A DNA stretch of 64,000 bases. Origin: Promethearchaeota archaeon (lineage in GTDB: Archaea; Asgardarchaeota; Lokiarchaeia; Sigyniarchaeales; SOKP01). Location of the stretch: the NCBI GenBank assembly GCA_016926735.1, contig JAFGOA010000223.1, forward strand, positions 31,276 through 95,275, read 5' to 3'. The notes beneath the pieces are model-generated. The model did not search any database, was not told the DNA's origin, and worked only from the letters and a program-made list of their open reading frames with translations. Each line of letters begins with the position of its first letter. Within the stretch, counting starts at the first letter, position 1. A program made the translations under genes and the position numbers. Shown piece by piece: positions 2,056-46,113 of this stretch.

Positions 2056-2084
2056 TTCCTCAGCATAAGAATAATCTTAAACTT
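2056..2084 (-). other. tRNA-His intron 2 (29 nt, variable loop), BHB type
   Basis: 4-bp helix CCTT/GAGG (one T.G). 3-nt bulges AGA and AAA. 9-position inner helix AGTTTAAGA/TCTTATGCT with one T.T mismatch and loop TTAT. Excision leaves a 4-nt variable loop AGAC. Confidence 0.7.
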
Positions 2085-2114
2085 CTAAGGATTCACAGTC
2101 CCCAATACTAACCA

Positions 2115-2144
2115 TTATACAAATTACAGTAGAACTGGAATTTT
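2115..2144 (-). other. tRNA-His intron 1 (30 nt, D-loop, between nt 15 and 16), BHB type
   Basis: 4-bp helix GTAT/GTAT (2 A-U plus 2 G.U). 3-nt bulges AGA and AAT. Inner hairpin AAATT-C-CAG/CTG-T-AATTT. Excision gives the canonical D-loop AGTGGTTA. Confidence 0.75.
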
Positions 2145-2488
2145 CTATACAATCCGGGTCATAAATAACAATAATATTATCTAATTTATATTTCTAAAAA
2201 AATTTTAGCTTTTAATAAGCAATTTGATCAATGATATTATGATTTTTGTTTTAAAATAATTTAAAAAGATATAAATAAGAATTTTAGAGATTTTAGAATG
2301 TATTTAAGCTCTTGAAAAAATTAAAATTAAGGATAAGAAGTCTGGAAGATTTATTTCATTCTAAATACTAAACAATATGTTTTTAAGTTAATTATTTTAA
2401 ATATTATTAAGTCAAACTAATAAATTTTTAATTTTTATTCTGATTTAATCCTAATTAGAATATAGAAGATCTTGGAAATTTGATTGAT

Positions 2489-2899
2489 ATGGCTGAAAAG
2501 AATAATCTAGATGATATCCCTGAAAGTTATCAAAGATATCTGGATGAGATATATACAATCGCAAGTAAAAAAAGAGGTGGTTGGGTGACAAATAAAGAAA
2601 TTGCTTTAAGTTTAGGTGTTGAGCCCGCTAGTGTTTCTGGTATGTTAGAAAAATTAAAAGAAAATAATTTAATTAATTGGGAGCCAAGAAAAGCAATCCG
2701 TCTTTCAAAAAAAGGAAAAGAAATTGCTATGCAACTCAATGAAAATCATCAACTATTGCTACTCTTTTTTAAGAAAGTCTTAAAATTAAAAGATAATCTT
2801 ACGATTGATGCCTTAGCTTGCCAAATTGAGCATCATATTTCACAAGATGTTAAAGAATCATTAAAGATATTTTTGGATAAATATTTAAATCAAAATTAA
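2489..2899 (+). CDS. DtxR/MntR-family metal-dependent transcriptional repressor
   Basis: N-terminal winged HTH (TNKEIALSLGVEPASVSGMLEKLKENNLI) followed by a dimerisation helix region. ATG at 2489 is preferred over the TTG at 2480 in the ORF track. Confidence 0.8.
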   Translation: MAEKNNLDDIPESYQRYLDEIYTIASKKRGGWVTNKEIALSLGVEPASVSGMLEKLKENNLINWEPRKAIRLSKKGKEIAMQLNENHQLLLLFFKKVLKLKDNLTIDALACQIEHHISQDVKESLKIFLDKYLNQN

Positions 2900-2948
2900 T
2901 TAATTGAATAAATTTTTAAAAAGAAACCATTAGAATTCTGAGAAAAAC

Positions 2949-3707
2949 ATGTCAGATAATTTAAATAAAAAAATAATGTTAATCGAGACATATTTTAAAG
3001 ATTTTTCCACTTTTATTGAATTAAAAAATTTTAGAGATTTCCTATTATTCACTCTTAACAGTCAAGCATCAGCGAATATACTTGCTCAATTAGGAATAGG
3101 TGGTTCTAAGGATATAATCAATATTCCATATAATCCTATTTCTGAAATTTATTATCAAAAAATCAGTTTGATTTCATCAGGCTCTCTAATCTTATATATA
3201 AAAAGCAAATCGTTATTTGATGAATTTGTTATTAAAAAAGAAAATCCCCAATTTAAAGAATACTTAAGTTCAAATGAGATGGAATTGGCATTCAGAGGAA
3301 AAGAGAAATTTTTAATTCCTAAAGTATGTGATTGCTCTAATTTAGAAAAAGAAAATGAATCACTTATACTAAAAATTGATGACCTCTACTACGATCTAGA
3401 AAGTTTTATGGCAGTTGTAGAACCTAACATTTTATTTGTATTAGATTCTAAAAAACAATCTGATCCTGATTTACTTTTCGCTTTTAATTTAATGCCAGAA
3501 ATGCCCGGAAGATCCGATAAAAATATTCTTAAAATAGATGTATATCTTGATCCTGAACATAAAACTAAAGATATAAACTATATTAAAAAAAAAGAAGATT
3601 TTAATCTTATTTTCTTAAAGAATATCAAAGATATAAGTCATTCAGATATTTTTAAATCAGCATTTTCATTAGTTCTGCATATTAAATCATTTGATCGTCC
3701 CTATTAA
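2949..3707 (+). CDS. hypothetical protein
   Basis: 252-aa ORF, non-repetitive, no recognisable motif. Confidence 0.45.
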   Translation: MSDNLNKKIMLIETYFKDFSTFIELKNFRDFLLFTLNSQASANILAQLGIGGSKDIINIPYNPISEIYYQKISLISSGSLILYIKSKSLFDEFVIKKENPQFKEYLSSNEMELAFRGKEKFLIPKVCDCSNLEKENESLILKIDDLYYDLESFMAVVEPNILFVLDSKKQSDPDLLFAFNLMPEMPGRSDKNILKIDVYLDPEHKTKDINYIKKKEDFNLIFLKNIKDISHSDIFKSAFSLVLHIKSFDRPY

Positions 3708-4140: not shown

Positions 4141-4158
4141 ATATTCTGCTTCTCTTGC

Positions 4159-4277: not shown

Positions 4278-5327
4278 ATGAAAGTCGCAAAATACTATAA
4301 TAATAAAGATGTAAGAATAGAGCAAATTTCAAAACCTACTATTAATCCAGATGAATTTTTAGTAAAAATAAGAAAATCTGGTATTTGTGGTTCTGATATT
4401 CTTGAATATTATCGTTTTGCAAAAATGAAGAAACTTGGTGTAGATAATCTTATATTAGGGCATGAAATAGCTGGGGATATTGTAGAAATTGGAAATAACG
4501 TAAAAGAATTTAAGATTGGAGATCGAGTATTCGTATCTCATCATGTACCATGTTTTAATTGTCATTTTTGTAAACAAGGTCATCATACAGCATGTCATTT
4601 ATTGCATAATACAAACTTTGACCCTGGTGGATTCTCAGAGTATGTTAGAATTCCTTCTATTAATATTGAGAAAAAAGGTGTATATGTCTTTAATGAAAGT
4701 ATGTCGTATGAAGATGGTGTTATGTTGGAACCATTAGCTTGTGTATGCAGAGCTCAGAGACTTGCAAATATAAAAGAGGGACAGACTATTTTGATTCTAG
4801 GAAGTGGTGTATCTGGTATACTGCATCTTAAATTAGCAAAAATGAAAGGAGCAGCTAAAGTAATAATGACAGATATTAGTGAGAATCGATTAAAACAAGC
4901 TCAGAAATATGGCGCTAATGAAATAATTAATGCTAATGAAGATATATTCTCTATTATAAAAAATCTTAATGAAGATCGAATGCCCGATTCTATAATAGTA
5001 TGTACAGGAGCACTAACAGCCGCTAATCAAGCGCTTAAATGTGTCGGAGCAGGATCCACCATCTTATTTTTTGCCGTACCAAAACCGGGTATAAACCTTG
5101 ACATCCCAATTAATGATTATTGGAGAAATGAAGTGATCATTATGACCTCCTATGGTGCAGCGCCCCCAGATTTGGATGAAGCATATGAATTAATTTCAAA
5201 TAAAAAAATAAATGTCAGTGATATTATTTCACATCGTTTTCCTTTAAATAAAGTTCAAGAAGCATTTAATATGGTATGTAATGCCGATAATTCATTAAAA
5301 GTGATTATAGATTTTGATATGAAATAA
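4278..5327 (+). CDS. zinc-dependent alcohol/polyol dehydrogenase (MDR superfamily, threonine/sorbitol dehydrogenase-like)
   Basis: GICGSD, GHEIAGDIVEIG, structural-zinc Cys cluster (CFNCHFCKQGHHTAC) and Rossmann GSGVSG. Confidence 0.85.
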   Translation: MKVAKYYNNKDVRIEQISKPTINPDEFLVKIRKSGICGSDILEYYRFAKMKKLGVDNLILGHEIAGDIVEIGNNVKEFKIGDRVFVSHHVPCFNCHFCKQGHHTACHLLHNTNFDPGGFSEYVRIPSINIEKKGVYVFNESMSYEDGVMLEPLACVCRAQRLANIKEGQTILILGSGVSGILHLKLAKMKGAAKVIMTDISENRLKQAQKYGANEIINANEDIFSIIKNLNEDRMPDSIIVCTGALTAANQALKCVGAGSTILFFAVPKPGINLDIPINDYWRNEVIIMTSYGAAPPDLDEAYELISNKKINVSDIISHRFPLNKVQEAFNMVCNADNSLKVIIDFDMK

Positions 5328-5417: not shown

Positions 5418-6695
5418 TTAAGAAATACTAACCGATTCTAATAAAAATTGTTTATACGAAGTTTGGAACATGTCCCTTATTCGCACAGGCTGAAACCAGT
5501 AGCCTCTATCGGATAGATCTTGAATAAAACCATCTCCGACTACTTTTCTGAGAATATTTAACGCTCCATTTACATCAGCATTAAGAATGTAATTCGAGCC
5601 TTTAAATATTCCCCGTTTTATCCTTTTACCAACATAATGTTGATGTTTCTGTATTGGTTCTAAATCTAATGAACTACATTTTGACGTGTAGGATTCATTG
5701 ACATCATGAACTTTAATTCCTACAAGGCGAGCTTTATAAGTTATCATTTGTTTAAGCTTTTGAATGGGGATATTCAAAAAATTTTGGTTATTTCGTTTGC
5801 CCATTCGAATATTTTGTTTTATATTATCTAATTTACCCAAACAAATGTGTCCTATCTGTTTTTCCAAACAATAACCGACAATGAATTGAGCTGTTTTATG
5901 CAAATAATCCTTTACAATTGAGTTTCTCCTTATTGTAATCTTATCGAGTCTATCAGTCCACTTTAGTTCTTGTTTATCCTTAATAGAAAAAAATCTTGCT
6001 TTCTGTTTATTCCATTGCCGATTAATTGATTTTAGAATTCTCCCTGAAATAATAATTGGTTTAGTATTCATATTCTCTGCTGTAGTGATTAAATTATTCA
6101 ATCCAAAATCGATTGATAAATATCTCGTGGTATCTAATTTTGACGTTTCTATTTCTTTTTTATATATTATTTCAATTTCATAAAATCCTTTTCGTGGCAA
6201 AATCCTTATCTGTTGATACTCTCCAAAACGCTTGTTTTTATACGTAGGAATTTTAATTTCAATAGGGTTTTCAAACTCAGGAAATAGTTCTTTAAAAAGG
6301 TGAGACATTGTAAGAACGATTTTATCCTGTTTAATCTTGCTATTCTGGTTAGTAAATATCAAAATGTTGTTACAACCTTTCTTGTATTTAGGTGGTCTCG
6401 GTCTTCCATTGAATCTTTTCCTATCTTTTTTCCACTCCTTTATAGCATTGAAGAAACTTTTCCAGTTTTTATCCAAGACTTTAAGAATTTGTTGAGAGGT
6501 TTGAGCTTTTAACAATTTATATTGGCTATATTTTTTCATTATGAAATCTAAATCGTTATATCGAAGCCAATTCTCTAGATGAAAGAAATCCTGTCGAATA
6601 TACCAATTAGCTTGATTATAAAGCTTCTTAGAAATTGAACAGAGCACATCTAAATGCTCAGTTCTCAGAGTCCTGAATTTATATACTAATTTCAT
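5418..6695 (-). CDS. tnpB: TnpB / OrfB_IS605-family protein (RNA-guided nuclease family), no tnpA partner
   Basis: 425 aa. RuvC-I-like SIDFGLNN. C-terminal YTSK...NADVNGALNILRK is typical of TnpB. The expected RuvC-II Glu and the CxxC..CxxC zinc finger are not evident (see findings). Confidence 0.8.
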   Translation of the reverse strand: MKLVYKFRTLRTEHLDVLCSISKKLYNQANWYIRQDFFHLENWLRYNDLDFIMKKYSQYKLLKAQTSQQILKVLDKNWKSFFNAIKEWKKDRKRFNGRPRPPKYKKGCNNILIFTNQNSKIKQDKIVLTMSHLFKELFPEFENPIEIKIPTYKNKRFGEYQQIRILPRKGFYEIEIIYKKEIETSKLDTTRYLSIDFGLNNLITTAENMNTKPIIISGRILKSINRQWNKQKARFFSIKDKQELKWTDRLDKITIRRNSIVKDYLHKTAQFIVGYCLEKQIGHICLGKLDNIKQNIRMGKRNNQNFLNIPIQKLKQMITYKARLVGIKVHDVNESYTSKCSSLDLEPIQKHQHYVGKRIKRGIFKGSNYILNADVNGALNILRKVVGDGFIQDLSDRGYWFQPVRIRDMFQTSYKQFLLESVSIS

Positions 6696-7503
6696 CCTGA
6701 AATTCCTCTTTCTTTTTTGTTACAAACTCTTTTCTTCTCCTTGAATTAATTGACATAGCATAACAATTAAACTCTTAACAGATTTAAGACTTCATAAGCT
6801 TTCATATTATTAAATGAATAATTCTTAATAAAAAAGGTAAGTGAGTCTTATGATTTTTAATAAAAATGGGGATGATATTATCTCAACTACTTATTGGAAT
6901 TTTATAAAAATCTATAATTATTTATAATAGTTAAAAATTCATTACACTTTTGGGATTTAAATGGATATTTAGATAGAAATACTCAAGCATTTATCTTCCG
7001 TAACCCTAATTATTATACTGAAATAAAAGAAATTATGAATAGTGATTGGATACATAGATTATTCAATCAGGCTCTCGATAATTTATAACAATTTAAAAAT
7101 TCTATTTCTTTTCTAAAAACACATAGTTTTGAAAAATTATTTTTATTTCAAAATACGATATATTTATCCAATTATATATGTATAGATTAACATAACTTGA
7201 AGATACTTCAAATAATTTAATATTTTTGTTTTCTTTAGGAAAAAAAAATTTTCCCTAATATTTTAGGATGGTAAATTTTCAAACGAGCTTTTTTTTGTTT
7301 TTTACTACATCCTAAGAGTATATGATTTTATAAATACAAAATCTATAGAATAATCTCAAATAAAAAAAAAAAATTGAGAAAATAATGTAAGAAAATTGTA
7401 CTATATAATGAAGGGATTTGATATCTATACAAAATAGATTTTAATGAAAAGGAGATTAATAAGAGAAAATTTTAGGTAAAATTTTAATATAAGGTGAATA
7501 AAA

Positions 7504-9283: not shown

Positions 9284-9414
9284 TTATAGTCCTTTAGGGC
9301 CATTTTCATATATTTTATATGCTTCATCAACAGATGTATTATCATGAACAATTGCTCTTACAGCTTTGATCATACCAATAGGACTATCACTTTGAAAAAT
9401 ATTTCTTTCCATAT
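9284..9414 (-). pseudogene. orphan second copy of the aldolase last exon (no upstream exons)
   Basis: Gap-free alignment with 10764..10894; I count 20 mismatches over the 129 nt from ATG to stop. It encodes [42 protein letters not shown], with the conserved GRN glycine changed to Glu. Confidence 0.75.
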
Positions 9415-9430
9415 ATTCAATTACGATATT

Positions 9431-10579
9431 TTATTTTAATTCTTCAAATTTCTTTCCTTTAAGTTGCTTATGCCAATAATGTGGTTTTGGTTTTTTAATA
9501 TTCCATTTTAAACATATTTCATTAACAATCCTTGGATATACATTATATATTTCACATATTTTTTTAATTGGCATTTTCCAAACTAATTTTATCAGTTCAT
9601 CCTTTTGAATGGAGTCTTCAAAAATATTTTTAGATGCAACTCTAAAATATTTCCTCTTTCGCGATAAACTATCTGGAAAATTATCTAACATTTCATTAAA
9701 TAGTTTTCCGCCCAAACTAAAATAATAATTCCCTTTACCATCGGGATTGATTTTATGAGGAATATTAAATCTTTTTTTTATTTCTTCTAAAATTAATTTA
9801 CTACCAATATGAAATTGATTAGTCCCTTCTTTTCCATCACCATCAAAAAAACCTAGTAAAAATGCCAGATCTAATTCTCTATTATCTAAATTAGGAAATC
9901 TTGTTCTTTTTTTACTACTTTTTACATAACCTAATGTGTATAGATCACTTTGAACATTAGAATTTTTAAAAGTAATCCTTACATATGTTCTTAGTTCATT
10001 TTTAGTCATTTTTGTTCGATATTTCTTGTATTTAGGATTTAAACCTATCGCTTTACAATACCTATCTATTAAAATTTCATCATTTTTGCTTAATTCAAGT
10101 TTTAATTCTCCTCTTTCTCCTAAATAAACTTCAGCCCACAATATTCCAAGCCAATAAGCTTTATTTTTTGAATTAATTTTTTTAAAGTAATTTATATTTA
10201 AATCAAGATGATAGTTTAAAACTTTTAGACCTTTTTTTCTAGATATTGGTAATTCTTCATTTGATTCTTGGTATTTCTTAATAAATTTTAATGTATTCTT
10301 CCCACGTAAGCCAAAATAAGCTTTAATATTATTACTCCATTCGTTTAATTCATCTAAAGCAATTTTAAATTGAGGATTCACTTTAATATTTCTTATAATT
10401 CTTTTTATACGTCTTTCATAATCACATAATATAAGACTTAATTTTTTATAAGATAAACTTCCATTATGAATTATTTTAACTTTAAAACCATTAATAAATA
10501 AGGTGGATGATACAATCTTAAAAATCTCGTTTCTTAAATCTTTTATTAATTCTGATGCAGAATAAGTAAGTCTTCTCAT
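9431..10579 (-). CDS. LAGLIDADG-family homing endonuclease-like protein with C-terminal HTH
   Basis: Two LAGLIDADG-type motifs (KAYWLGILWAEVYLG and LAFLLGFFDGDGKEG). The C-terminus PIKKICEIYNVYPRIVNEICLKW is HTH-like. Confidence 0.75.
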   Translation of the reverse strand: MRRLTYSASELIKDLRNEIFKIVSSTLFINGFKVKIIHNGSLSYKKLSLILCDYERRIKRIIRNIKVNPQFKIALDELNEWSNNIKAYFGLRGKNTLKFIKKYQESNEELPISRKKGLKVLNYHLDLNINYFKKINSKNKAYWLGILWAEVYLGERGELKLELSKNDEILIDRYCKAIGLNPKYKKYRTKMTKNELRTYVRITFKNSNVQSDLYTLGYVKSSKKRTRFPNLDNRELDLAFLLGFFDGDGKEGTNQFHIGSKLILEEIKKRFNIPHKINPDGKGNYYFSLGGKLFNEMLDNFPDSLSRKRKYFRVASKNIFEDSIQKDELIKLVWKMPIKKICEIYNVYPRIVNEICLKWNIKKPKPHYWHKQLKGKKFEELK

Positions 10580-10763
10580 TCCTCAATTATTTTGTTGTGT
10601 TTATTTCTGGTCTTTTTTCTATTTTTATCTAATTGAATTACTTCTCTAGTTTAAAGAATCTTTATTGATTTATATGGTTTTTATTAATATATATTTTAAT
10701 AGAGTCTGCAGATTTTTTTAAATAAAATATTTATATTATAACAAGAAAAAAAAAATAAAAAAA

Positions 10764-11608
10764 TTAAAGTCCTTTTGGACCGTTTTCATATATGCTATAT
10801 GCTTCATCAATAGACTTATTCTCATGAACTATAGCTCTTACTGCTTTAATCATGCCAATAGGGCTGTCACTTTGGAATATATTTCTTCCCATATTTGCGC
10901 CTATAATTATAAAAAATAGTTATAGTCTACGCCGACAGCTCCTTTATCAATAGCATTCCTTGCCATAATTAAAGCATCACGCTCCTCAATCTTCTTTCCA
11001 CCAGCTATTACAACCGGTACTGGAGCGATAGAAGTGACTTCGTCGAAGTTCTCACAATAATATGTTTTTACAAAAGTGGCACCTATTTCTGCTGCCATTC
11101 TACTTGCCATACCCAAATATCTTGCATCTCTAACCATTTCCCGTCCAACTGCTGTTACTGCTAAGACTGGAATACCATAATCTTGTCCCCAATTTACAAT
11201 CTTAGTTAAATTCATTAAAGATTGTTTTTCAAATTCACCACCTACAAAGATGGAACAGGTAATTGCTGAAACATTTAATCTTATCGCATCTTCAATTGTA
11301 ACATTTATTTCTTCATTTGAAAGTTCTTTTAACATACTTGCTCCGGCAGATACTCTTAGAACGATAGGTACATCAAAATCCGGTGAAACACAATTTCGAA
11401 GCATACCTCGTGTTAACATTAAAGCATCAGCATATTCAAAAAGGGGTTCTAACTTCTTAAAAGATTTTAACATTCCTGGGATATTGCCAAAATATTCATG
11501 AGTATGTATTAATTATACATATTTTCCATGATCGACAGCAAGCATGACGCAATGCCCAGATTTAGGTTTAATTATTCGGGATAATCTATTTTGCATTCCC
11601 CAATCCAT
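10764..11608 (-). CDS. class I aldolase of the DhnA family (fructose-bisphosphate aldolase / ADH synthase type), split into three exons by two BHB mini-introns
   Basis: Exons are 11608..11525, 11494..10927 and 10894..10764. The joined product is 260 aa. It has MLAVDHG-YFGNIPG, the Schiff-base Lys context ATFVKTYY, and GAVGVDMGRNIFQ. Unspliced, it contains an in-frame TAA and a frameshift. Confidence 0.8.
10895..10926 (-). other. aldolase intron 2 (32 nt), BHB type
   Basis: Helix GCGT(10932-10929)/GCGC(10900-10897). Bulges AGA and AAA. Inner helix CTATAA/TTATAG. Excision corrects the frame and gives GAVG-VDM-GRN spacing. Confidence 0.7.
11495..11524 (-). other. aldolase intron 1 (30 nt), BHB type
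   Basis: Helix CATG(11530-11527)/CATG(11500-11497). Bulges GAA and AAT. 9-position inner helix with one A.C mismatch and loop AATTA. Excision removes the in-frame TAA and gives AVDHG|YFGNIPG. Confidence 0.7.
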
Positions 11609-16912: not shown

Positions 16913-19063
16913 ATGAAAAGAGGGTATACAAACAGAACTCTTTATATTAATCTTACCAAAAAGGAAATTAAAATAAAATCTGTCTCTGATGAAATGAAAG
17001 AGAAATTTATTGGAGGAAGGGGTTTTGATATTTGGTTAATGTGGAATAGTTTACCAAAAGATCGAATAGTCAAGTGGAATGATCCTGAAAATGAAATATG
17101 TTTGGCAACTGGGCCTCTTGGTGCATCTACGTATTATCCTGGAGGGGGAAAATCAATAGTTACTTCAATATCTCCTTTAACAGGTATAATTATCGATAGT
17201 AATGTAGGAGGTTATTTTGGGTCATATTCGAAATATTCTGGTTTCGATGCAATTGAGATTCAAGGTAAAGCAGAAAAAGAAGTTCTCATCTTTATAAATG
17301 GACAGGATCATATTATTCAATTAATAGAAGCAAATGATTTTGAAGAATTATCCGATAATTCCCATTTGCTTACCCAACAATTAACAGAAAAATTTGCAAA
17401 AGAACCCTCAGAAAAAGAAAAACAATTAGTTTCAGTTGTATCTACAGGACCAGGCGCTAAATATACAAGATGGGGATTGTTAAATTTCTCTTGGTATAAT
17501 AGGAAAAGAAAATGGGCTTCATGTAAACAAGCAGGTCGAGGAGGGATTGGAACTGTTTTTGCAGATAAAAAAATTAAAGCGCTTATATGTAGGGCTCCTA
17601 TTTATGATGTAAAAAGAAATAACCCAGCGAATCCAGAGAAATTAGCAGAGTTAGGTAAGAAACATAATAAAAATATCATAAAATTTGATCCTACAATGAA
17701 TCAAATGAGATTTGTTGGAACTGGCTATCTACCTGATATTATGAATATAACCGACCTACTTCCAACTGAGAATTATCGTTTTGGACAACATAGAGAAATT
17801 AAGGATAAAAATATTCCATACAAAAGACAAGTATGGTTTGAATTATTTGGAGAGCATACCGGAAAAGGAGCGGATGGGTGTTGGCTTGGATGTTCTGTGA
17901 GCTGTTCACATTGGATTAGTGATTATGAAGTTATGACAGGACCTTTTAAGGGTCAGAAAGTTATAGTTGATGGTCCTGAATATGAAACAATTGCAGGATG
18001 TGGTTCCAATTGGGGTGTGTGGGATCCAAAATGGGTAGTAGAAGTAAATTTTTATTGTGATACCTATGGTCTAGATACAATTGGAGTTGGTACTGGTATA
18101 GCATTTGTAATGGAATGTTATGAAGAAGGGATAGTTAATAAAGATATTACTGGGGGTCTTGAATTAAATTTTGGGAATATTGAGGCTGCTATAGAATTAA
18201 TACATCAAATGGCTCGAGGAGAAGGATTTGGTGTTGTTGTTGGTCAAGGAATAAAGAAAATGAAAAAGAAATTTGCAGAAGAATACGGAGGAGATCCTCA
18301 ATTTTTACAAGATATTGGAATGGAACATAAAGGATTAGAATTTTCAGAATATATAACAAAAGAAAGTCTTACTCAGCAAGGAGGTTATGGTTTAACAAAT
18401 AAAGGACCTCAACATGATGAAGCGTGGTTAATTTTTGAAGATATTGTACGACACTCAATACCTACTTTTGAAGATAAGGCAAAAGCACTCTATTGGTTTC
18501 CCCTTTGGAGAACATGGTTTGGGTTATGTGGACTATGTAAATTACCTTGGAATGATGTTCCTCCTCCATCTAATTTTGAATTACCTATTAAAATGGCCGG
18601 TGAATTACTCCAAGCTAAAATCCCACAACATGTTCAATGGTATGCTGATTATTTTTCAGCAGTAACAGGAATTCATACAGAACCAGATGATTTGATACAA
18701 ATGTCTGAGAGAGTATATAATCTTCAGAGAATTTTTAATATAAGACAAGGTAAAGGACTAAAGGAGCATGATTCAAATTTACCATATCGAGCAATGGGAC
18801 CGGTAACAAAAATGGAATATGAAAGTCGACAAGAAAGATATGATAATCAATTAAAAGAACTTGAAATAGATGTGAAAGACCTATCAACTGAGGAGAAAAT
18901 GAAGATTCTAAGAAAAAATAGAGAAATTCAATATTTTAAACTTCAAGAAGCAGTATACGAGAAAAGAGGATGGAATGCTTTTGGTTGCCCAACTATCGAT
19001 CTTTTAAAAAGATTGGAAATAAATTATGAAGATCTTATCCATGTAATTAAACCATATCAGTAA
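16913..19063 (+). CDS. aldehyde:ferredoxin oxidoreductase family (tungstopterin enzyme)
   Basis: N-terminus MKRGYTNRTLYINLTK...GGRG and central EYETIAGCGSN, GLDTIG and CKL motifs are typical of the AOR family. ATG at 16913 is in frame with the track ORF that starts at 16877. Confidence 0.9.
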   Translation: MKRGYTNRTLYINLTKKEIKIKSVSDEMKEKFIGGRGFDIWLMWNSLPKDRIVKWNDPENEICLATGPLGASTYYPGGGKSIVTSISPLTGIIIDSNVGGYFGSYSKYSGFDAIEIQGKAEKEVLIFINGQDHIIQLIEANDFEELSDNSHLLTQQLTEKFAKEPSEKEKQLVSVVSTGPGAKYTRWGLLNFSWYNRKRKWASCKQAGRGGIGTVFADKKIKALICRAPIYDVKRNNPANPEKLAELGKKHNKNIIKFDPTMNQMRFVGTGYLPDIMNITDLLPTENYRFGQHREIKDKNIPYKRQVWFELFGEHTGKGADGCWLGCSVSCSHWISDYEVMTGPFKGQKVIVDGPEYETIAGCGSNWGVWDPKWVVEVNFYCDTYGLDTIGVGTGIAFVMECYEEGIVNKDITGGLELNFGNIEAAIELIHQMARGEGFGVVVGQGIKKMKKKFAEEYGGDPQFLQDIGMEHKGLEFSEYITKESLTQQGGYGLTNKGPQHDEAWLIFEDIVRHSIPTFEDKAKALYWFPLWRTWFGLCGLCKLPWNDVPPPSNFELPIKMAGELLQAKIPQHVQWYADYFSAVTGIHTEPDDLIQMSERVYNLQRIFNIRQGKGLKEHDSNLPYRAMGPVTKMEYESRQERYDNQLKELEIDVKDLSTEEKMKILRKNREIQYFKLQEAVYEKRGWNAFGCPTIDLLKRLEINYEDLIHVIKPYQ

Positions 19064-21361: not shown

Positions 21362-21661
21362 TTAAATATTACATTCTTTATTACAATTTACTAATATTTT
21401 CGAAGCAATTCCTCTTCCAATGACAATTTTTGATCCTTTAACTTCGATCTCCAATGGTCCTCTAAGTGGTGCTTCTTTTTTTTTCTTAATTATTGATCCA
21501 GGAACAATTCCTAAATTAGCTAAATGATTTTTTGCTTTCATACCTGAGTTAACAGATAAAACTATAACATCCTCATTTTTCTGACATAATGTTAAGCATT
21601 TAATCAATGTTTTTCCTATCTTAGATATTTGATCTGAATCATTGAATTTAATTTCATTCAT
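21362..21661 (-). CDS. feoA: FeoA-family protein
   Basis: 99 aa SH3-like FeoA pattern (LANLGIVPGSII...GPLEIEVKGSKIVIGRGIASKILV). Confidence 0.85.
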   Translation of the reverse strand: MNEIKFNDSDQISKIGKTLIKCLTLCQKNEDVIVLSVNSGMKAKNHLANLGIVPGSIIKKKKEAPLRGPLEIEVKGSKIVIGRGIASKILVNCNKECNI

Positions 21662-21717
21662 AACTAAACAGTTTTTTATTCTATAATATAAAAATAGTTT
21701 TTATTATATTTAAACTT

Positions 21718-22714: not shown

Positions 22715-23080
22715 ATGCCAAGTGGAGATGGAACTGGTCCAAATGGTTTTGGACCAAGAACTGGAAGGGCGTTAGGATATTGTGCCGGATATAATGTACC
22801 TGGATATCTTAGGGGTCCTGGAAGAGGAGGTTTTAATAGAGGATTAGGCTTTGGAAGAAACTTTTATGGAAGGCGATTTGATTATCCCTTTCATAGAGGA
22901 GATCTATTAACTCCTATAAATCCAATTAATAATATAGGACTTAATTCAGAGATCACTCCTGAATCTAAAATAGCTATTTTAAATAGAGAAAAAGAATATT
23001 TGGAGTCAGAAATGGAAAATCTTAAGACAATTATTGGTAATATTGAAAAAAATATCACTCAAATTAAAAAACAAGAATAA
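22715..23080 (+). CDS. DUF5320-family protein
   Basis: MPSGDGTGPNGFGPRTGRALGYCAGY... is a Gly/Arg-rich N-terminus, followed by a C-terminal coiled coil, as in DUF5320. ATG at 22715. Confidence 0.65.
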   Translation: MPSGDGTGPNGFGPRTGRALGYCAGYNVPGYLRGPGRGGFNRGLGFGRNFYGRRFDYPFHRGDLLTPINPINNIGLNSEITPESKIAILNREKEYLESEMENLKTIIGNIEKNITQIKKQE

Positions 23081-25986: not shown

Positions 25987-25999
25987 CTGGGAATGAATA

Positions 26000-31119: not shown

Positions 31120-33123
31120 ATGAGTAAAAATAAATACGAATTTAAAGCAGAAATTAAAAAACTATTAGATATCTTGAGTAAATCCCTTTATCAACATAAA
31201 GAAGTTTTCCTCAGAGAATTGATTAGTAATTCTGTAGATGCACTTAAAAAAATTCATTTTTTATCATTAACAGATAAAAATATAGAAGATATTGAAGATA
31301 ATCTTAAAATTGAAATTATCATTGATTCTGATTCTAAAACAATTACTGTTAAAGATACAGGAATTGGAATGAATAAAGAGGAGCTTATTAATAATTTAGG
31401 AACTATTGCTGGAAGTGGTTCTCAAAAGTTTCTAGAACAACTTAATAATACCCAAAAAATAGATAATAAAAATGTGGATTTAGATGTTATAGGTCAATTT
31501 GGTGTTGGGTTTTATTCGATTTTCATGGTTGCTGATAAAGTTAAAGTAATTTCGAAATCATATATTAAAGAAGAGAACGCTTATGAATGGGAATCAGATG
31601 GAACTGGAGAATTTATTGTAAATAATAATGATAAATCTACAAGAGGAACAGATGTAATATTATTTCTTAAAGAAGATGAGAAAGAATACCTTGATAAATT
31701 TAGGATTGAATCAATAATAAAAAAATATTCTAATTATGTCTCTTTTCCAATTTACGTTTCTGAAATAAAAAAAGAAGCAGAAGAGGAAAAAGAGAAAAAA
31801 GTTGAGGAAGTGGAAGATAAAAAAAAACCTGAACCTATTAATGAATTAACTCCTTTATGGAAAAAAAATTCAAAAGATATTACTGAAGAGGAATATAAAA
31901 GCTTTTACCATTTTATTTCCAATAGATATGATAATTATTCACATGTTATTAATTATAGTATAGATGGCACTGTTCAATTTCGTTCTATACTTTTCATACC
32001 TGAATCTGATATCAATCAATTTATAAGACCTGATGATGAATATGGCTTAACTCTTTATTCTAAAAATGTAATGATTATGAAAAATTGCAGTGATTTAATT
32101 CCAAAATGGATGAGATTTATAAAAGGAGTTGTTGATTCAAATGATATTCCATTAAATATCAGTAGAGATACCATTCAAACTAATCGGGTAATGATGAAGA
32201 TAGAAAAATTACTAATTAAAAAAATATTAAGAGAACTTGATAATATCGCTGAAAATGAACCAGAGAAATATAAGAAATTATGGGAAAGTTTTTCTCCATA
32301 TATAAAAGAGGGTATTCTTTCTGACGCTTTTAGAACAGATAAACTTCTTACTTATCTTCGCTTTAATAGCTCAAAATCAAAAGAGGGCGAATATAGAAGT
32401 ATTGAAGATTATATAAAAGATATGCCTGAAACTCAAAAAGAACTATATTATTTAATTGGCGAAAATCTAAATACTTTGAAGTTATCACCTCATTTAGGAT
32501 ATTATAATGAAAATAATATGGAAGTTATATTATTAGATGAACCTATTGATAATTTCTTAATGATGAATGTACGTGAATATAAAAAAACAATACTGGAAGG
32601 TGAAAATGAAGAAATTAAATCATACACCTTTACTCCCATAGATGTAACAGAACCTACTAAGGAAGATAAAGAAGCATCAGAGGATGAGGGTAAAAAAGAT
32701 AAAACTGAAGAACTTATTCCTGAGAATATAAAGAAATTCTTTGAATATGTAAAATCTACTCTTGGAGAAAAGATTCTTGAGGTTAAACTGTCTGATCGTC
32801 TCTATCAAAATGTATGTAGATTGGCAAATCCTGCTGGTGGTATGACTTCAAGTATGCAAAGAGCTATGAGATATTGGACAAAAACAGAATATGGAAAAGA
32901 TTTTGAAATTCCGAGGAAAATTTTAGAGTTTAATAAGGATCATCCTATTTTTAATAAATTAATTGAACTTTATGAAAATGATCCAAAAGATGATAAAGTC
33001 ACATTAATTATAACTCAACTTTTTGAAAATTGCCTTTTAGCTGAAGGTGATCTACCAAATCCATCTCTTATGGTTCCAAGAATAAATCAATTAATTGAGT
33101 TATTATTAGTTGAAAAAAAATAG
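31120..33123 (+). CDS. htpG: Hsp90-family chaperone HtpG
   Basis: GHKL ATPase motifs (FLRELISNSVDALKK, DTGIGM, GQFGVGFYS), middle-domain NISRD, 667 aa. Confidence 0.9.
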   Translation: MSKNKYEFKAEIKKLLDILSKSLYQHKEVFLRELISNSVDALKKIHFLSLTDKNIEDIEDNLKIEIIIDSDSKTITVKDTGIGMNKEELINNLGTIAGSGSQKFLEQLNNTQKIDNKNVDLDVIGQFGVGFYSIFMVADKVKVISKSYIKEENAYEWESDGTGEFIVNNNDKSTRGTDVILFLKEDEKEYLDKFRIESIIKKYSNYVSFPIYVSEIKKEAEEEKEKKVEEVEDKKKPEPINELTPLWKKNSKDITEEEYKSFYHFISNRYDNYSHVINYSIDGTVQFRSILFIPESDINQFIRPDDEYGLTLYSKNVMIMKNCSDLIPKWMRFIKGVVDSNDIPLNISRDTIQTNRVMMKIEKLLIKKILRELDNIAENEPEKYKKLWESFSPYIKEGILSDAFRTDKLLTYLRFNSSKSKEGEYRSIEDYIKDMPETQKELYYLIGENLNTLKLSPHLGYYNENNMEVILLDEPIDNFLMMNVREYKKTILEGENEEIKSYTFTPIDVTEPTKEDKEASEDEGKKDKTEELIPENIKKFFEYVKSTLGEKILEVKLSDRLYQNVCRLANPAGGMTSSMQRAMRYWTKTEYGKDFEIPRKILEFNKDHPIFNKLIELYENDPKDDKVTLIITQLFENCLLAEGDLPNPSLMVPRINQLIELLLVEKK

Positions 33124-40448: not shown

Positions 40449-42410
40449 ATGGAAAAAAAAGAAAACAAAGATATACGGAGTTTTGTTGTTGTCTGTCGAT
40501 GTGGTATTAACATTTCAGAAATAATCGATTGTCCTTCCCTAGTTGAATTCTCTAAAAAATTACCTACTGTTGTTGATGCTGATGAATATATTAGTATTTG
40601 TACTGAACCAGGTGCAGAATTTATAAAAAAAAAAATGACAGAAGCTAATGCCAATAGATTGATTGTTGTTGCTTGTACCCCTAAAACTCATGAACCTGTG
40701 TTTAAAACTGTTCTTGAGTCGATGAATTTAGATCCTTCTTATCTTGAATTTGCAAATATAAGAGAACATAGTAGTTTTGTTCATAGAAATGATATTGAAG
40801 GTGCTCAAAAAGTAGCTAAAGATATAGTTAAATCTGCTGTTGCAAGAGCATCCTTGTTAGAACCTATTAAAATAAAAGAAGTAGATATCACCAAAGAAGT
40901 TTTAATACTTGGTGGAGGTGTTTCAGGGTTAACTTGTGCAATAGATCTAGCTGAAGAAGGGTATATAGTACATCTAGTTGAAAAATCTCCTACAATTGGA
41001 GGTAAGATGGCTCAATTAGATAGAACGTTTCCAACTGATGATTGTTCAATCTGAATTTTAGGACCAGTAATGTTACAAGCAGCGAGAACCAAAGGACTAA
41101 ATATATACACATATAGTGAATTAGAGAACGCTAATGGATTTGTCGGGAATTTTGATGTAAAAATCAGAAAAAGAGCAAGATTTGTAACAAATGATTGTAA
41201 TGGATGTGGTGCTTGTGAACCTGTTTGCCCTGCAATTAGTTCAAATGAATTTAATGAAGGATTAAATCCAAGATCAGCAATTTATACAGCATTTGCTCAA
41301 GCAGTACCCTCTATCGCACAAATTGATATGACAAAATGTATAAAATGTGGTCTATGTCAAAAAGCATGTGAACTAAATGCTATAGATTTTGATCAAAAAG
41401 ATGAAATTCAAGAGATAAAAGTAGGAGCAATTGTCGTAGCTACTGGTTGGGATGAATATATACCTCCTATTGGAATGTTAGGATTTAATATATATCCTAA
41501 TGTTATTACTCAAATGAAATTAGAGAGAATTCTTGCCCCAAATGGTCCTACAATCGGACATTTAGCAAGACCTTCTGATGGAAAAACACCAAAAAAAATC
41601 TTATTCATTCAGTGTGTTGGTTCACGAGATTTAAATAAAAATACTTATTGTAGCTCAGGAGTATGTTGTATGATTTCAATAAAAAATACAAAGCTTATTA
41701 AACAACATTATCCTGATTGCGAAATAACCGTAGCATATATGGATATTCGTGCAGCAGGAAAAGATTATGAAGAGTATTTTACAGCATCTAGAAAGGAAGG
41801 GATAAGATATATCAGAACTAATATTAGTAAGATAGAAGAAAATCTTGAAAATCACAATTTAATCATTAAAATGCAAAATACTCTCAGAGATTCTAAGAAA
41901 TTTCAGGAAAATGAATTTGAAATGGTTGTACTTTCTTGTGCTATGACTCCCCCTAGAGGAATAAAAAAAATACAAACCTTACTAAAATTAGAGACAAGCA
42001 GAGATGGCTTTTTCAAAGAATTTCATGCAAGATTGAATCCAATTGATACAAAAATACCTGGAATTATTCTTGCAGGGGTTAGTCAAGGTCCTAAATCTAT
42101 AGCTGAATCGATATCTCAAGGAAGAGCCGCAGCCTCATCCGCAGCTCGATTAATGAGTAAGGATAAATTTAGAATTGCTCTAATTAGAGCAAAAGTAGAT
42201 AAAGAAAAATGTGCTAAATGCGGTTTATGTGAATTTAATTGCCCTTATAATGCTATTACTTTGAAAGATGATGGCGCAGATGTTGATGAAATTTTATGTA
42301 GAGGATGTGGTTCATGTTTAGCTAATTGTCCATCAGAAGCAATAAGTTTAAGATATTATAAAGAGAATCAGTATGAAAAACAAATAGATGCGATTCTTGA
42401 GAATACATAG
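40449..42410 (+). CDS. hdrA: heterodisulfide reductase subunit A (HdrA) selenoprotein; in-frame TGA = Sec
   Basis: Track ORFs 40449..41054 and 41070..42410 are in one frame, separated only by TGA 41052-41054. That TGA sits at FPTDDCSI-U-ILGP, where HdrA homologs have Cys or Sec. FAD motif GGGVSG and four ferredoxin-type Cys clusters. 653 codons. Confidence 0.85.
41052..41054 (+). other. UGA selenocysteine codon in hdrA
   Basis: Aligns with the conserved Cys of the DCSxC motif. Confidence 0.75.
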
Positions 42411-42418
42411 AGAGGTTG

Positions 42419-42895
42419 ATGATTATTACAAAATCAGATTTAAAAATTATTAGCTTTATGTGTTGGAAATGAGGATATGGTGCTGGAGATATGGCAGGAA
42501 CAATTCGTGCTCAATATCCCGCTACAATCAGACCTATTCGAATTAATTGTACTGGAAGAGTCACTCCAAGTTTAATGATGCGTACATTAGGAAAAGGTGC
42601 TGATGGAATTATAGTAGCTGGATGATATCCTGGAGAATGTGATTTTGAAACAGGTAATCTTGTTGCTGAAAAAAATGTTCAATATGTAAGAGAAATTTTG
42701 AAAACAATTGGACTCTCCGAAGAACGAGTACACATGTTTAATTGTAGTGCAGCAGAAGGACAGAGATTTCAAGAGGAGATTACTAGAATTTCTGAAATAA
42801 TTGAGACACTTGGCAACAACCCTTTTAAAGAATCTAATACATTAAAAAAAGTATCTGATTCTAAAGAAGGAAAAAAAATAAACCGAATTGAATGA
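42419..42895 (+). CDS. vhuD: MvhD/VhuD-like hydrogenase delta subunit with two in-frame TGA (Sec) codons
   Basis: Reads FMCWK-U-GYGAGDMAG...RINCTGRV...GADGIIVAG-U-YPGECDF..GN...NCSAAEG. Both TGAs (42470, 42623) fall on conserved Cys positions of MvhD. Starts 9 nt after the hdrA stop, with GAGAGG upstream. Confidence 0.8.
42470..42472 (+). other. UGA selenocysteine codon 1 in vhuD
   Basis: Occupies the position of the second Cys of the CxxC-type N-terminal motif. Confidence 0.7.
42623..42625 (+). other. UGA selenocysteine codon 2 in vhuD
   Basis: Occupies the Cys position in the G-C-x-P-G-x-C motif. Confidence 0.7.
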
Positions 42896-43088
42896 TTTTT
42901 ATGAAGAAAATTTGGTCATAAAATGACAACCTTGTGATGGTTTATTCGGTATTTTCAATTTATAACCTAATTTTTAACTAAAAAAATTATTTAGATAATT
43001 TATTATCAACTCAAATTAGAATAAAAGAAAAATTTAATTTAAATGAAGAAAAATAAAAAATAATCTAATAAGAATAATTCAAACTATT

Positions 43089-44399
43089 ATGTCAAATGTT
43101 CAGAAAGACAAAATCGAAAAATTATATGAAAAAGCAGAGCAACTTTATAAGGCAATTCAATATAAAAAGGCAGGTAAGACTTATTATCGCGTGGGAGAAA
43201 GCTTTTATGAAATAAAAGAATTTAAAATTGCTCAAGAAGCTTACTTTAAAGCAGCAGATTCTTTTATACAAAAAGAAGATCATGAAAAAGTCATAAAATC
43301 TCTAAGAAAATCTATAGATTCTTATTTAGAATTAGATGATATTGAAAATGCTCTTAAATTGTTGGAAAAATCAATTGATTATATAGAGAAATTAAATAAT
43401 CAAGATCTTAGAGAATCTTCTTATATCTTATTCTCATTCCTATCTTATTTATGTTATTATGCATTAGGTGTTCCAGATAAGGGGCTCAACGTTGTTAAAA
43501 GAGCTCAAAAGAGAGTAGATAAAGAATATTTCAAACAAAATTCTACAATCCACCTTATAACTAATTTTACTATCGCTTTAAGAGATAAAAAGAAAAAAAA
43601 AATTGATAAACTAACTGAAGATCTGCATCATATACAATTATATAATGGTGAGCTAAAATTAGTTAAAAATATTCTCTTAATTGCAACAATTAATGTTGAT
43701 AATACGCCTGAAATTAAATTAGATAAAGAAGATTACATAACAAATGAAATTATCCAAATGAATATGGATATTAATATTCAATCTATGTTAGAGACCGCAA
43801 AAAAAGATTTCTTTGATTTTAGAATAGATGAAATTACGATTAAAGGAATTAAAATAAATCTTACTGACAATTTATCAATTCAAACAAAACCTAGATTACC
43901 TTTAATTCTTGACTTGGAAAGTAATTTTAACTTTAATTTTTCTATAAAACCACAATTTATTACAGAGATGAGTACAATAGGTCCTATTAAAATTGAATTT
44001 TTGATAAATAATCTATACTCATTTTATATTGAAAATAGAAATGAATTTCCAATAAATCTTTCAGCTCCTCCAACTTCTCTTGAGATCTCCTTAAAAAGTT
44101 TGAAAACTCCTTTGATTGATAAGACTTTTCCACTAGAAATATTGATAGAAAATAAAAGTGAGGGAGATGCTTCTGATTTGAATATAAATATTAAATTTCC
44201 CGAACAAATTAGAGTTATTAGAGGTACAATTGAAAAACAGATATATTCTCTAAGATCTAATGAAACAATTAAATGGGAAATCAGCTCAAGACCTCTTGAA
44301 GCAGGAGATTTTGAGATTCAAATTGATTTTAGCTTTAAAGATCCTGATAATAATAATATAGAAGAAAAAATAACATTTCCATTAGCAATAAAATTGTAA
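43089..44399 (+). CDS. hypothetical protein, TPR-like helical N-terminus plus beta-rich (CARDB/DUF11-like) C-terminus
   Basis: 436 aa. Repeated helical hairpins (YKKAGKTYYRVGESFYE...AQEAYFKAADSF) are followed by a beta-sandwich-like tail. Confidence 0.45.
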   Translation: MSNVQKDKIEKLYEKAEQLYKAIQYKKAGKTYYRVGESFYEIKEFKIAQEAYFKAADSFIQKEDHEKVIKSLRKSIDSYLELDDIENALKLLEKSIDYIEKLNNQDLRESSYILFSFLSYLCYYALGVPDKGLNVVKRAQKRVDKEYFKQNSTIHLITNFTIALRDKKKKKIDKLTEDLHHIQLYNGELKLVKNILLIATINVDNTPEIKLDKEDYITNEIIQMNMDINIQSMLETAKKDFFDFRIDEITIKGIKINLTDNLSIQTKPRLPLILDLESNFNFNFSIKPQFITEMSTIGPIKIEFLINNLYSFYIENRNEFPINLSAPPTSLEISLKSLKTPLIDKTFPLEILIENKSEGDASDLNINIKFPEQIRVIRGTIEKQIYSLRSNETIKWEISSRPLEAGDFEIQIDFSFKDPDNNNIEEKITFPLAIKL

Positions 44400-44544
44400 G
44401 AATTCGTTTATTAGGAAATAAATTCCTAATATATTATATTTTAAATTATTAGTTAAAAATAAAGAACTATTTTTATAAAAGGATCAATTTAATAGTATGT
44501 TCTAAGCTTATTATTATACAACATAATGTAAAAAAAATGATAGT

Positions 44545-46113
44545 ATGAGATTAATAGTAAAAAAAATAAATTTTGAAACTGGTAATATGAAAGACGTTGT
44601 GCTTAACCATAATGATGCTGAAAAAATAGGACAAAAAGTTGGAGAACGTGTTATTATTCAAAATATAAATACTAAAAACTTAAGTGAAAAATATTGGGTT
44701 GCTATATTAAAAATTTCATATTCAGATTCTATAGTAGCTCCAGGAGAAATAGGAATTTTTGCTGACACATTTAAAGATATAAAAAATTTAAAAGAAAATT
44801 CCAAAGTCTCAGTTTTAGCTGCTGAAGCACCTACATCATATAAAAATATCCAAAAAAAAATTAAAGGTTTTAAACTTAATTCTGATGAAATTCATAGTAT
44901 TATAAAGGATGCAGTATCTGGGAAATTGTCACAAATAGAAATTGCATCATTTATTACTGGTATTTCTATTAATAATATGGATTCTGATGAAATGACAGCA
45001 TTAACATTAGCAGAAGGTAACAGTGGAAGAAAATTTGATTTTGGTCCGGAAGTCTATGACAAACATAGTACATAAAATTGCACTCTGTAATTTTAGCTAA
45101 AAGGTGGAGTTCCGGGTAATAAAGTAACACTTATAATCGTTCCAATAATTGCAGCTGCAGGATTAATTATTCCGAAAACAAGTACTCGTGCTATAACATC
45201 TCCTTCAGGTACAGCCGATTCAATGGAGGTTCTAGCGCCAATCTCTTTTAATTCAGAAGAAGTAAAAGAATTTATCTCAAAAAGAGGAGCATGTATTATT
45301 TGGGGAGGTGCTTTAGATATAGCACCTGCAGATAATGTTTTTATAGAAGTTGAACGTCCACTTCATTTTGATCCTATGGGTTTAATGATACCTTCAATTT
45401 TAGCTAAAAAACTTAGTATGGGTGTAAAAAACCTAGTATTAGATGTACCTATTGGTAAAGGAACAAAATTTCCTACACTTAAAGATGGACAAAATTTTGC
45501 TCTCATATTCAATCAAATTGCCAAAAATATTGGTATTCATAGTGAGTGTGCTTTAACCTTAGCTCATCAACCTGTGGGTCACTGTGTTGGACCGGCAATT
45601 GAAGCTCAAGAAGCAATTTCTCTTCTGAGGGACTATAAAGTAGGACCTAATTCTTTAATAGAAAAATCAACTTCATTAGCAGGTATTCTTTTAGAGATGG
45701 CAGGAAAAGCTAAAAATGGAGAAGGACAATTATTAGCTAAAGATATCTTAAAATCAGGGAAAGCTTATACAAAAATGAAAGAAATTATTGAAATGCAAGG
45801 TGGTAATCCTAATATTTTGCCAGAAGATATAGAATTAGGTCCATATAAACTTGATATCTATGCTCAAAAATCAGGTCATATCACTCAAGTGGATAATGCT
45901 TTAATTAATCAAATTGCAAAAGCAGCAGGCTGCCCCTATTCTAAAACTTCAGGAGTTAGAATTTATAAAAAACAAGGTGCTAAAATAAATAAAGGTGATA
46001 TTATTTTTACAATCTATTCTAATACTGAAAATAAGTTAAAAAGAGCTGAAAAATTATACAATAGTTCTGGAGGGCCTATTATATTAGGAGGAATGCTCAT
46101 AGAACGTATTTAA
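44545..46113 (+). CDS. AMP phosphorylase (archaeal DeoA-type, thymidine phosphorylase family) interrupted by one 30-nt BHB intron
   Basis: Exons 44545..45071 and 45102..46113 give 512 aa. The spliced product has [49 protein letters not shown]. The N-terminal extension is typical of AMP phosphorylase. Confidence 0.85.
45072..45101 (+). other. AMP phosphorylase intron (30 nt), BHB type
   Basis: Helix TAGT/GCTA, bulges ACA and AAA, inner 7-bp helix TAAAATT/AATTTTA. The insert carries three in-frame stop codons. Confidence 0.75.

Follow-up and report, generated by a model that had tools for sequence, protein, structure and literature searches.

The 64-kb stretch of DNA studied here, referred to as the window (positions 31,276 to 95,275 of contig JAFGOA010000223.1, assembly GCA_016926735.1, from a Promethearchaeota archaeon; G+C content 23-31%), carries five short inserts in three conserved genes: two in a tRNA-His gene, two in a gene for an LsrF-type aldolase/thiolase and one in a gene for AMP phosphorylase. 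We describe these inserts as mini-introns with the anatomy expected of archaeal introns cut out by the tRNA-splicing endonuclease, and report a homing-endonuclease cassette attached to one of them. Corresponding loci of relatives are labelled L001-L026, and the introns are seen in metagenome-assembled genomes (MAGs) and metagenomes from NCBI, ENA, JGI and Logan; the nearest AMP phosphorylase and LsrF loci are all in Promethearchaeota/Lokiarchaeota MAGs. The features are listed below, with bulges in lower case and lengths in nucleotides (nt), base pairs (bp) or amino acids (aa).

2029..2160, minus strand: tRNA-His(GTG) gene with encoded G-1 and two introns (Rfam tRNA, and ARAGORN after excision)
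2115..2144, minus strand: tRNA-His intron 1, 30 nt, D-loop, position 15/16; GTAT aga AAATTCCAGTTCTACTGTAATTT GTAT aat, 23-nt hairpin
2056..2084, minus strand: tRNA-His intron 2, 29 nt, variable region, position 45/46; CCTT aga AGTTTAAGATTATTCTTATGCT GAGG aaa
10764..11608, minus strand: LsrF-type (DhnA/DeoC-fold) aldolase/thiolase gene, exons 11525..11608, 10927..11494 and 10764..10894 (NF006081)
11495..11524, minus strand: LsrF intron A, 30 nt, in frame, TAA at the fourth codon; CATG gaa AATATGTATAATTAATACATACT CATG aat
10895..10926, minus strand: LsrF intron B, 32 nt, frameshifting; GCGT aga CTATAACTATTTTTTATAATTATAG GCGC aaa
9431..10579, minus strand: free-standing gene of a LAGLIDADG homing endonuclease, 382 aa (by fold and homologue families)
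9284..9412, minus strand: displaced second copy of LsrF exon 3, 42 codons, intact (by homology to exon 3)
44545..46113, plus strand: AMP phosphorylase gene, two exons, 44545..45071 and 45102..46113 (TIGR03327)
45072..45101, plus strand: AMP phosphorylase intron, 30 nt, in frame; TAGT aca TAAAATTGCACTCTGTAATTTTA GCTA aaa, 10-bp inner stem
L024, 3588..3617: LsrF intron C, 30 nt, in frame, stop-free; perfect 4-bp central helix, 9-bp hairpin

All five elements of the window could be located, and their sizes (30, 29, 32, 30 and 30 nt), bulges (AGA/AAT, AGA/AAA, AGA/AAA, GAA/AAT and ACA/AAA) and 4-bp central helices are as the original prediction gave them. The central helix pairs the end of the 5' exon with the 3' part of the intron in 5/5 cases, with 0-2 G.U pairs, and in all five the 5' bulge lies between this helix and an inner hairpin, which has 8-10 bp with at most one mismatch rather than the predicted 6-9 positions. 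Four of the five have a T.G pair beside the inner hairpin, again as predicted; this pair is not conserved in orthologues (C-G in L003; T-A in L015 and L016). Orthologues retain the central helix, in one case through a double change of an exon-intron pair from C-G to U-A; in intron B of L024 the helix has one mismatch. Three introns in protein-coding genes had been claimed, which is the right number, with two of them in the same gene, LsrF. Splice sites were placed after the second base of each 3-nt bulge, i.e. between the second and third bulge residues, a cut position verified for crenarchaeal cbf5 introns (PMC2738675).

Under this rule the motif stands in the exact product-restoring register at 5/5 interruptions of conserved genes, and the rule also restores the products of orthologues and of the L024 gene with intron C. 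The chance of an exact register, estimated from the hit density of a strict descriptor of the motif, is ~7e-4 per position per case. Unspliced, all three mRNAs reach a stop within 0-5 codons; the predicted spliced mRNA junctions are ...CATAGTAC/AGGTGGAG, ...GATCATGGA/TATTTTGG and ...GGCGTAG/ATATGGGA. As MAFFT did not bring non-orthologous introns into structural register, detection relied on descriptor scans with dinucleotide shuffles and on scans that join open reading frames (ORFs), and in the ORF-joining scan of the window the three protein-gene sites were the sole convincing introns. Reading the CATG...CATG and GTAT...GTAT repeats at the introns as target-site duplications yields the wrong protein or tRNA sequence; the repeats exist because the central helices are near-palindromic.

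For the tRNA-His gene, ARAGORN detects a 73-nt tRNA-His(gtg) once both introns are taken out, and nothing when the sequence is left unspliced or loses just one of them. The Rfam tRNA model covers part of the gene and scores 29.4 bits (gathering score 29). The gene is missed by ARAGORN and borderline in Rfam because of its two introns, and standard tRNA counts for such MAGs would be too low; a T-arm motif search for hidden tRNAs in the window found tRNA-His alone. Intron 1 has an identical copy in L017, whose contig is near-identical to the window and carries both introns, and a diverged copy with a different hairpin at the same site in L016. Intron 2 is present in L017 with 2 substitutions and absent from L016.

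In the AMP phosphorylase gene a TAA stop directly follows the 5' splice site, and the minimum-energy fold of the intron is exactly the predicted structure. The spliced protein of 512 aa scores 578.6 bits against TIGR03327 (cutoff 535) and aligns with the T. kodakarensis enzyme (PDB 4ga5) without a gap over the junction. L001, L002 and L003 (95, 85 and 80% protein identity) carry the intron at the same site, and L004-L006 (70-74% identity) lack it. Across L001-L003 the pairing of the stem is kept through one compensatory and three one-sided changes, and the ratio of nonsynonymous to synonymous substitution rates (dN/dS) against the intron-bearing orthologues is ~0.05-0.11 in both exons. L004 also holds, at 1790..1826 (minus strand), a 29-nt near copy of the intron including the 3' GCTAAAA, in which ~24/30 bases match the intron of L003. 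This copy is antisense within a TetR-like ORF, 1.2 kb upstream of AMP phosphorylase, which has no intron in L004. Lacking a central helix partner, it does not make a working splice motif; AT-rich coding sequence may have produced the match by chance, or the copy may be a relic.

The spliced LsrF-type protein has 260 aa and scores 387 bits against the NCBIfam equivalog NF006081 (cutoff 297). Excision of intron A gives ...LAVDHG/YFGNIPG and excision of intron B gives ...GAVGVD/MGRNIFQ; neither junction has a gap in the alignment with E. coli LsrF (PDB 3gkf), in which there is one 1-residue gap, two residues past junction A. The product is 87% identical to, and has the same length as, uninterrupted 260-aa homologues from Promethearchaeota. 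Most LsrF homologues are uninterrupted, and it was truncated gene calls that exposed the intron carriers; public databases contain truncated LsrF fragments resulting from these introns. Intron A alone is found in L012 and L021-L023, intron B alone in L014, L015, L018, L019 and L024, and both in the window and L020. Over its full length the archaeal gene closely matches bacterial LsrF, the thiolase of the autoinducer-2 pathway (3gkf, E 3e-87), and LsrF-type genes are widespread in Promethearchaeota.

In addition to intron B, the LsrF gene of L024 has the in-frame, stop-free intron C, which gene callers translate as the 10-residue NIDLKAKFIP. Its excision restores VIAGGKKIP, and its minimum-energy fold is exactly helix-bulge-hairpin. 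At the corresponding site of the window (10995..11018, minus strand; ...VVIAGG/KK...) the exon itself can fold as a small helix-bulge-hairpin, TCCA gta CCGGTTGTAATAGCTGG TGGA aag, which may be coincidence or a trait of intron-accepting sites.

Base pairing in the LsrF introns is maintained by compensatory changes. These affect 4/13 pairs of intron A, a count reached by 3/500 shuffles, and 7/13 pairs of intron B, including one central-helix exon-intron pair, a count reached by 0/500 shuffles; in slid-register controls intron B has at most one compensatory pair, and the highest count in the controls of either intron is two. The exons are under purifying selection, with dN/dS of 0.03-0.15 in every LsrF exon. 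Given values of 0.03-0.15 in all exons of LsrF and AMP phosphorylase, we regard both as working genes, and apart from the introns neither has any defect.

Intron B forms the left edge of a cassette of ~1.5 kb (9284..10926 with the displaced exon, minus strand), inserted exactly at the LsrF exon 2/3 boundary. The inserted block runs from intron B through a replacement exon 3, which includes the stop codon, and a spacer to the endonuclease gene; behind it lies the displaced original exon 3. The endonuclease gene lies 184 nt downstream of the LsrF stop codon, and its 382-aa product is identical to JXA99_16690 at NCBI, from a Ca. Lokiarchaeota MAG. Full-length homologues carry PF14528 (LAGLIDADG_3); the window protein itself falls below threshold (16.4 versus 22.5 bits, E 0.011). 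Its AlphaFold2 model, with a predicted local distance difference test score of 89.7, has the double alpha-beta-beta-alpha-beta-beta-alpha fold of the LAGLIDADG family, and Foldseek matches it with probability 1.0 to I-Tsp061I, I-SceI, I-DmoI and the bI3 maturase. The sequence shows two LAGLIDADG motifs that include acidic residues (...YWLGILWAEV... and ...LLGFFDGDGK...), and G243, D246, G247, D248 and G249 are invariant across 39 homologues.

This gene is linked to intron B beyond the window. Homologues with 53-63% identity adjoin LsrF intron B in L018, L019 and L020, and 4/4 of the close homologues examined lie beside it. We found no other copies near AMP phosphorylase, tRNA-His or intron-A-only loci, and the intron-A-only loci (L012, L021-L023) have neither cargo nor exon repeat. 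The cassette recurs in further Loki lineages: L018 and L020 show the same arrangement as the window, and equivalents of the second exon 3 copy are found in L018 and L020 (partial in both) and in L024. The 3' splice junction marks where homology of the second copy starts; we considered, and discarded, a larger intron ending at this copy, as no splice motif, complementary strand or bulge precedes 9412. The two copies in the window are 84% identical over 87 compared bases (dN 0.06, dS 1.03, dN/dS 0.06), and those of L024 have dN 0.15, dS 1.38 and dN/dS 0.11. Such low ratios imply that the copies diverged while both belonged to functioning genes, and so favour entry of the cassette by horizontal transfer. 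In L015 intron B stands alone, the state that loss of the endonuclease gene would produce.

We read the five elements as archaeal endonuclease-type introns of the relaxed bulge-helix-bulge (BHB) form (HBh') in an Asgard genome, with mobility of the intron B cassette as an attached hypothesis, and put the probability of this reading, which draws on sequence comparison, at about 85%. In the unspliced RNA, the final 4 bases of the 5' exon would base-pair with 4 bases close to the intron's 3' end, and the 8-10-bp intron hairpin would stack on this central helix. The host tRNA-splicing endonuclease would then cut both sites, each after the second base of the purine-rich 3-nt stretch, and an RtcB-type ligase would join the exons. 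Splicing would yield a canonical tRNA-His and mRNAs that can be translated into AMP phosphorylase and the LsrF-type aldolase. Among related lineages, gain and loss of the introns take place in the DNA itself. Asgard archaea are reported to have an (alpha-beta)2 EndA with an L1 loop that confers broad specificity (PMC5829648).

Several observations weigh against splicing. Under the strict hBHBh' definition, in which both 3-nt bulges have a helix on either side, the elements fail. The two-bulge architecture originally described holds for the 5' bulge, which is flanked by helices in 5/5, and not for the 3' bulge, where the closing outer helix has 4 bp in tRNA-His intron 1 only and 0-1 bp in the other four. 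This makes the motif the relaxed HBh' form, as seen in non-canonical introns of Crenarchaeota (PMC4090602), and not a full BHB, and a permissive endonuclease has to be assumed for the four elements that lack an outer helix. Single-sequence fold energies are unremarkable (z-scores -0.5 to -2.3), and neither a splicing endonuclease gene nor an RtcB gene is encoded within the window. Nor is the bare motif enriched: a generic BHB descriptor gives 2365 loose matches, and a stricter one gives 91 in the window versus 74.6 +/- 9.9 in dinucleotide shuffles, a density that makes it useless as a stand-alone detector. Adding a purine-bulge rule leaves 6 matches versus 1.3 in shuffles, a rule that was itself drawn from the five elements. 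The original prediction had named as contrary evidence a motif equally dense in shuffled sequence with no enrichment at gene-disrupting positions; the density is indeed equal, but enrichment at gene-disrupting positions is complete.

Mobility is best supported by the cassette with the homing-endonuclease gene at intron B. We consider it about as likely as not that the endonuclease has the LsrF exon 2/3 junction (for example, GCTGTCGGCGTAGATATGGGAAGAAATAT in an intron-less allele) as its target. It would cut intron-less alleles at this junction, and repair of the cut would copy the cassette in; the mini-intron would split the target site and thereby shield the carrier. Recombination between the exon 3 copies could later delete the endonuclease gene and leave a solo mini-intron. 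Extended to Loki-type Asgard archaea in general, mini-introns would invade protein genes within homing-endonuclease cassettes, the intron giving immunity, the replacement exon keeping the gene working and repeat recombination leaving solo introns such as LsrF A and that of AMP phosphorylase. We hold this wider scheme to be tentative and less likely than not. Several observations speak against the cassette model. In L019 the endonuclease gene beside intron B is on the opposite strand and comes without a second exon copy. In L024 (3720..4996) a PIN/MazE-type toxin-antitoxin pair takes the place of the endonuclease gene between the exon 3 repeats, which makes the cargo variable. The distant endonuclease homologues in L025 and L026 have no cassette and no flanking gene-end repeats. 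Over the 87 bases that can be compared, the element-borne exon copies (3A) do not group together across genomes, and both exon copies of L020 are 92-95% like the single exon of its relative L022, which fits local duplication or gene conversion as well as import.

The mechanism of archaeal tRNA intron mobility has been described as unknown (PMC4090602). If the cassette scheme is true, it would supply the missing mechanism for archaeal intron transposition, and many Asgard genes annotated as fragments or pseudogenes would be spliced. The cassette is in any case a concrete, testable route for mobility of BHB introns at the DNA level.

Whether the five introns share an ancestor is a question separate from splicing. 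We see an even chance that they arose or arrived separately and owe their likeness to the constraints of the endonuclease and to a G+C content of 26%. The architecture is what the endonuclease requires of its substrate and is equally frequent in shuffles, so it is no evidence of common descent. Hairpin sequences drift freely while pairing is kept, and the homing-endonuclease gene is linked to intron B alone. When 16 anchored arm bases were compared, nine of the ten intron pairs were unremarkable, at 6-12/16. Less easily explained by separate arrivals is that all five are 29-32 nt long with purine-rich bulges; we know of no requirement of the endonuclease for this length or for such bulges.

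The tenth pair is tRNA-His intron 1 and the AMP phosphorylase intron, in which the 15 identical arm bases originally noticed are present. At 15/16 the pair exceeds every one of 2415 background hairpin pairs from the same window (maximum 14), is as close as AMP phosphorylase orthologues are to each other (13-15), and shares a pattern, AAAATT...CTGTAATTT, that occurs 2 times in the window versus 0.08 expected. This similarity is an argument for the mobile family of the original prediction, with all five introns descending from a single element that transposes between tRNA and protein genes, as are the polymorphism of the introns and the intron transposition between tRNA genes documented in Thermoproteales (PMC4090602). 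We nevertheless think one mobile family unlikely. The similarity concerns 1/10 pairs only; the shared arms are short and AT-only, the 4-base guide strands differ (GTAT versus GCTA), and the architecture is dictated by the enzyme. With the AMP phosphorylase orthologues tRNA-His intron 1 still scores 12-15; its more distant orthologue in L016 scores just 9-11 against the AMP phosphorylase introns. Both introns are old, being shared by diverged genomes, yet their divergence from each other is at the level of orthologues, which fits convergence or chance as well as recent copying. By these comparisons a common origin of this one pair is plausible but unproven, and a single family for all five is not supported.

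The anticipated polymorphism is supported: introns come and go among related genomes, with AMP phosphorylase carrying its intron in L001-L003 and not in L004-L006, and LsrF having A, B, both or neither. The expectation of many more introns remains extrapolation, with none further, disruptive or in-frame, in the window or in 152 kb of related loci. That in-frame, stop-free introns can go unseen by ORF calling is borne out by intron C of L024.

Programmed translational bypassing, in which ribosomes would hop over the ~30-nt inserts of an unspliced RNA as in phage T4 gene 60 or the mitochondrial byp elements, is a far less probable explanation of the inserts than splicing. Their size and hairpins are like those of byp elements, and the TAA in AMP phosphorylase directly follows the last exon codon. 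Matching take-off and landing codons are found at 0/3 sites, however, and the intron B junction falls inside a codon and shifts the frame by 2. Bypassing would also be meaningless in a tRNA, yet the same architecture interrupts tRNA-His, and among the covarying pairs is one of exon with intron in the central helix, which is specific to the endonuclease motif. That the inserts are junk in dead genes, whether pseudogenes, assembly artefacts or chance hairpins, is hardly credible. In its favour are the origin of the sequence from a MAG, the frequency of BHB-like hairpins by chance and the splitting or truncation of these genes by gene callers; against it, the same inserts recur in independent assemblies from four sources, dN/dS is low in all exons, compensatory changes are present, both genes are otherwise intact and the register is exact in 5/5.

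The other genes of the window are ordinary and include FeoAB, aldehyde:ferredoxin oxidoreductase, HisRS, Hsp90, DNA ligase, his-operon genes and a Gtr1/RagA-like GTPase. A number of further intron candidates were rejected. Positions 41052..41054, 42470..42472 and 42623..42625 are each a single in-frame TGA at a conserved Cys position, within an HdrA-like protein (40449..42410) and an MvhD/FlpD protein (~42419..42895). Pfam FlpD aligns 1-123/123 over both MvhD TGA codons, and from their sequence context the HdrA and MvhD TGAs are probably selenocysteine codons. A 30-nt GAA/AAT element at 23011..23040, in frame within a DUF5320 gene, leaves the ORF undisrupted, and it has two G.U pairs and a hairpin that is weak, at 4 bp; the true GAA/AAT intron is 11495..11524. 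The in-frame candidates 17212..17241 (aldehyde:ferredoxin oxidoreductase) and 4355..4381 (alcohol dehydrogenase) encode conserved protein motifs, and none of the remaining in-frame stop-free candidates inside window ORFs was convincing.

Two non-coding regions were noted in passing. The sixth match to the strict descriptor with the purine-bulge rule, 21676..21709 (minus strand; GTTT aaa, a 27-nt hairpin, GAAT aaa), lies in the spacer of two FeoA genes, 15 nt 5' of the start of 21362..21661, and disrupts nothing; it could be a chance match, a terminator or a processing site in an untranslated region. A TnpB/IS605 OrfB-type gene at 5418..6695 (minus strand) is followed by ~800 bases (6696..7503) without an ORF of at least 80 aa, which could be the guide RNA of the TnpB-type gene or another non-coding feature.

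Endonuclease-type introns are known almost exclusively from tRNA and rRNA genes. Here, two ordinary metabolic genes within 64 kb of an Asgard genome contain three of them, and a relative has a fourth that gene callers silently translate. By their sequence, the mRNAs concerned appear to need processing before they can be correctly translated. If this density holds genome-wide, tRNA-type splicing of mRNA would be routine in the closest known archaeal relatives of eukaryotes and many MAG annotations would be wrong. The introns are not spliceosomal and have no direct bearing on the origin of spliceosomal introns.

In the literature searched, endonuclease-type introns in protein-coding genes are documented only for cbf5 of Crenarchaeota, and we found no open-access report of BHB introns in Asgard protein-coding genes; an earlier description elsewhere is possible. 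The cbf5 pre-mRNA intron (Watanabe 2002; Yoshinari 2006; Yokobori 2009, PMC2738675) is the closest parallel, being a short relaxed-BHB intron in a protein gene with the same cut position. It is gained and lost among relatives, and its removal is ascribed to a hetero-oligomeric splicing endonuclease of broad specificity (PMC2738675). Unlike cbf5, the introns described here are in an Asgard host and in metabolic genes, occupy up to three positions per gene family, include one with a homing-endonuclease cassette and are known from sequence alone. The tRNA-His gene, with two introns at non-canonical sites of one tRNA, resembles crenarchaeal genes with non-canonical tRNA introns of the hBH/HBh' type (Marck & Grosjean 2003; Sugahara 2008; Fujishima 2010; PMC4090602). 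In Thermoproteales, similar tRNA intron sequences at different sites suggest transposition at the DNA level (PMC4090602), whereas the candidate paralogue pair found here, one such pair in the 64 kb covered, spans a tRNA and a protein gene. The proposed splicing also has features in common with that of HAC1/XBP1 by IRE1 and RtcB in eukaryotes (PMC13149111), in which a protein endonuclease cuts mRNA at small stem-loops and a tRNA-type ligase joins it with a change of frame and without a spliceosome. The nuclease and motif are different, and the IRE1 system is regulatory, while nothing here suggests regulation.

For the cassette, archaeal rRNA BHB introns (I-DmoI; I-Tsp061I, PDB 2dch) provide a precedent, as they are associated with LAGLIDADG enzymes (general description in PMC8598171). 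In those introns the endonuclease gene lies inside the intron; here it is free-standing behind an element-borne last exon, the intron has 32 nt and the host gene is protein-coding. Two other systems have comparable elements. In the collaborative homing of cyanophage psbA, a free-standing endonuclease gene reportedly targets the insertion site of an intron, and in Allomyces atp6 an endonuclease ORF is said to bring a replacement 3' gene end that displaces the resident one. To our knowledge, a protein-spliced BHB mini-intron in such a collaborative-homing-like role has not been described. The psbA and atp6 cases share with the cassette an endonuclease gene outside the intron, a protected carrier allele and a displaced gene terminus; they involve a group I intron or none, in phage or mitochondrial genomes, whereas the element at LsrF combines the same parts with a BHB mini-intron.

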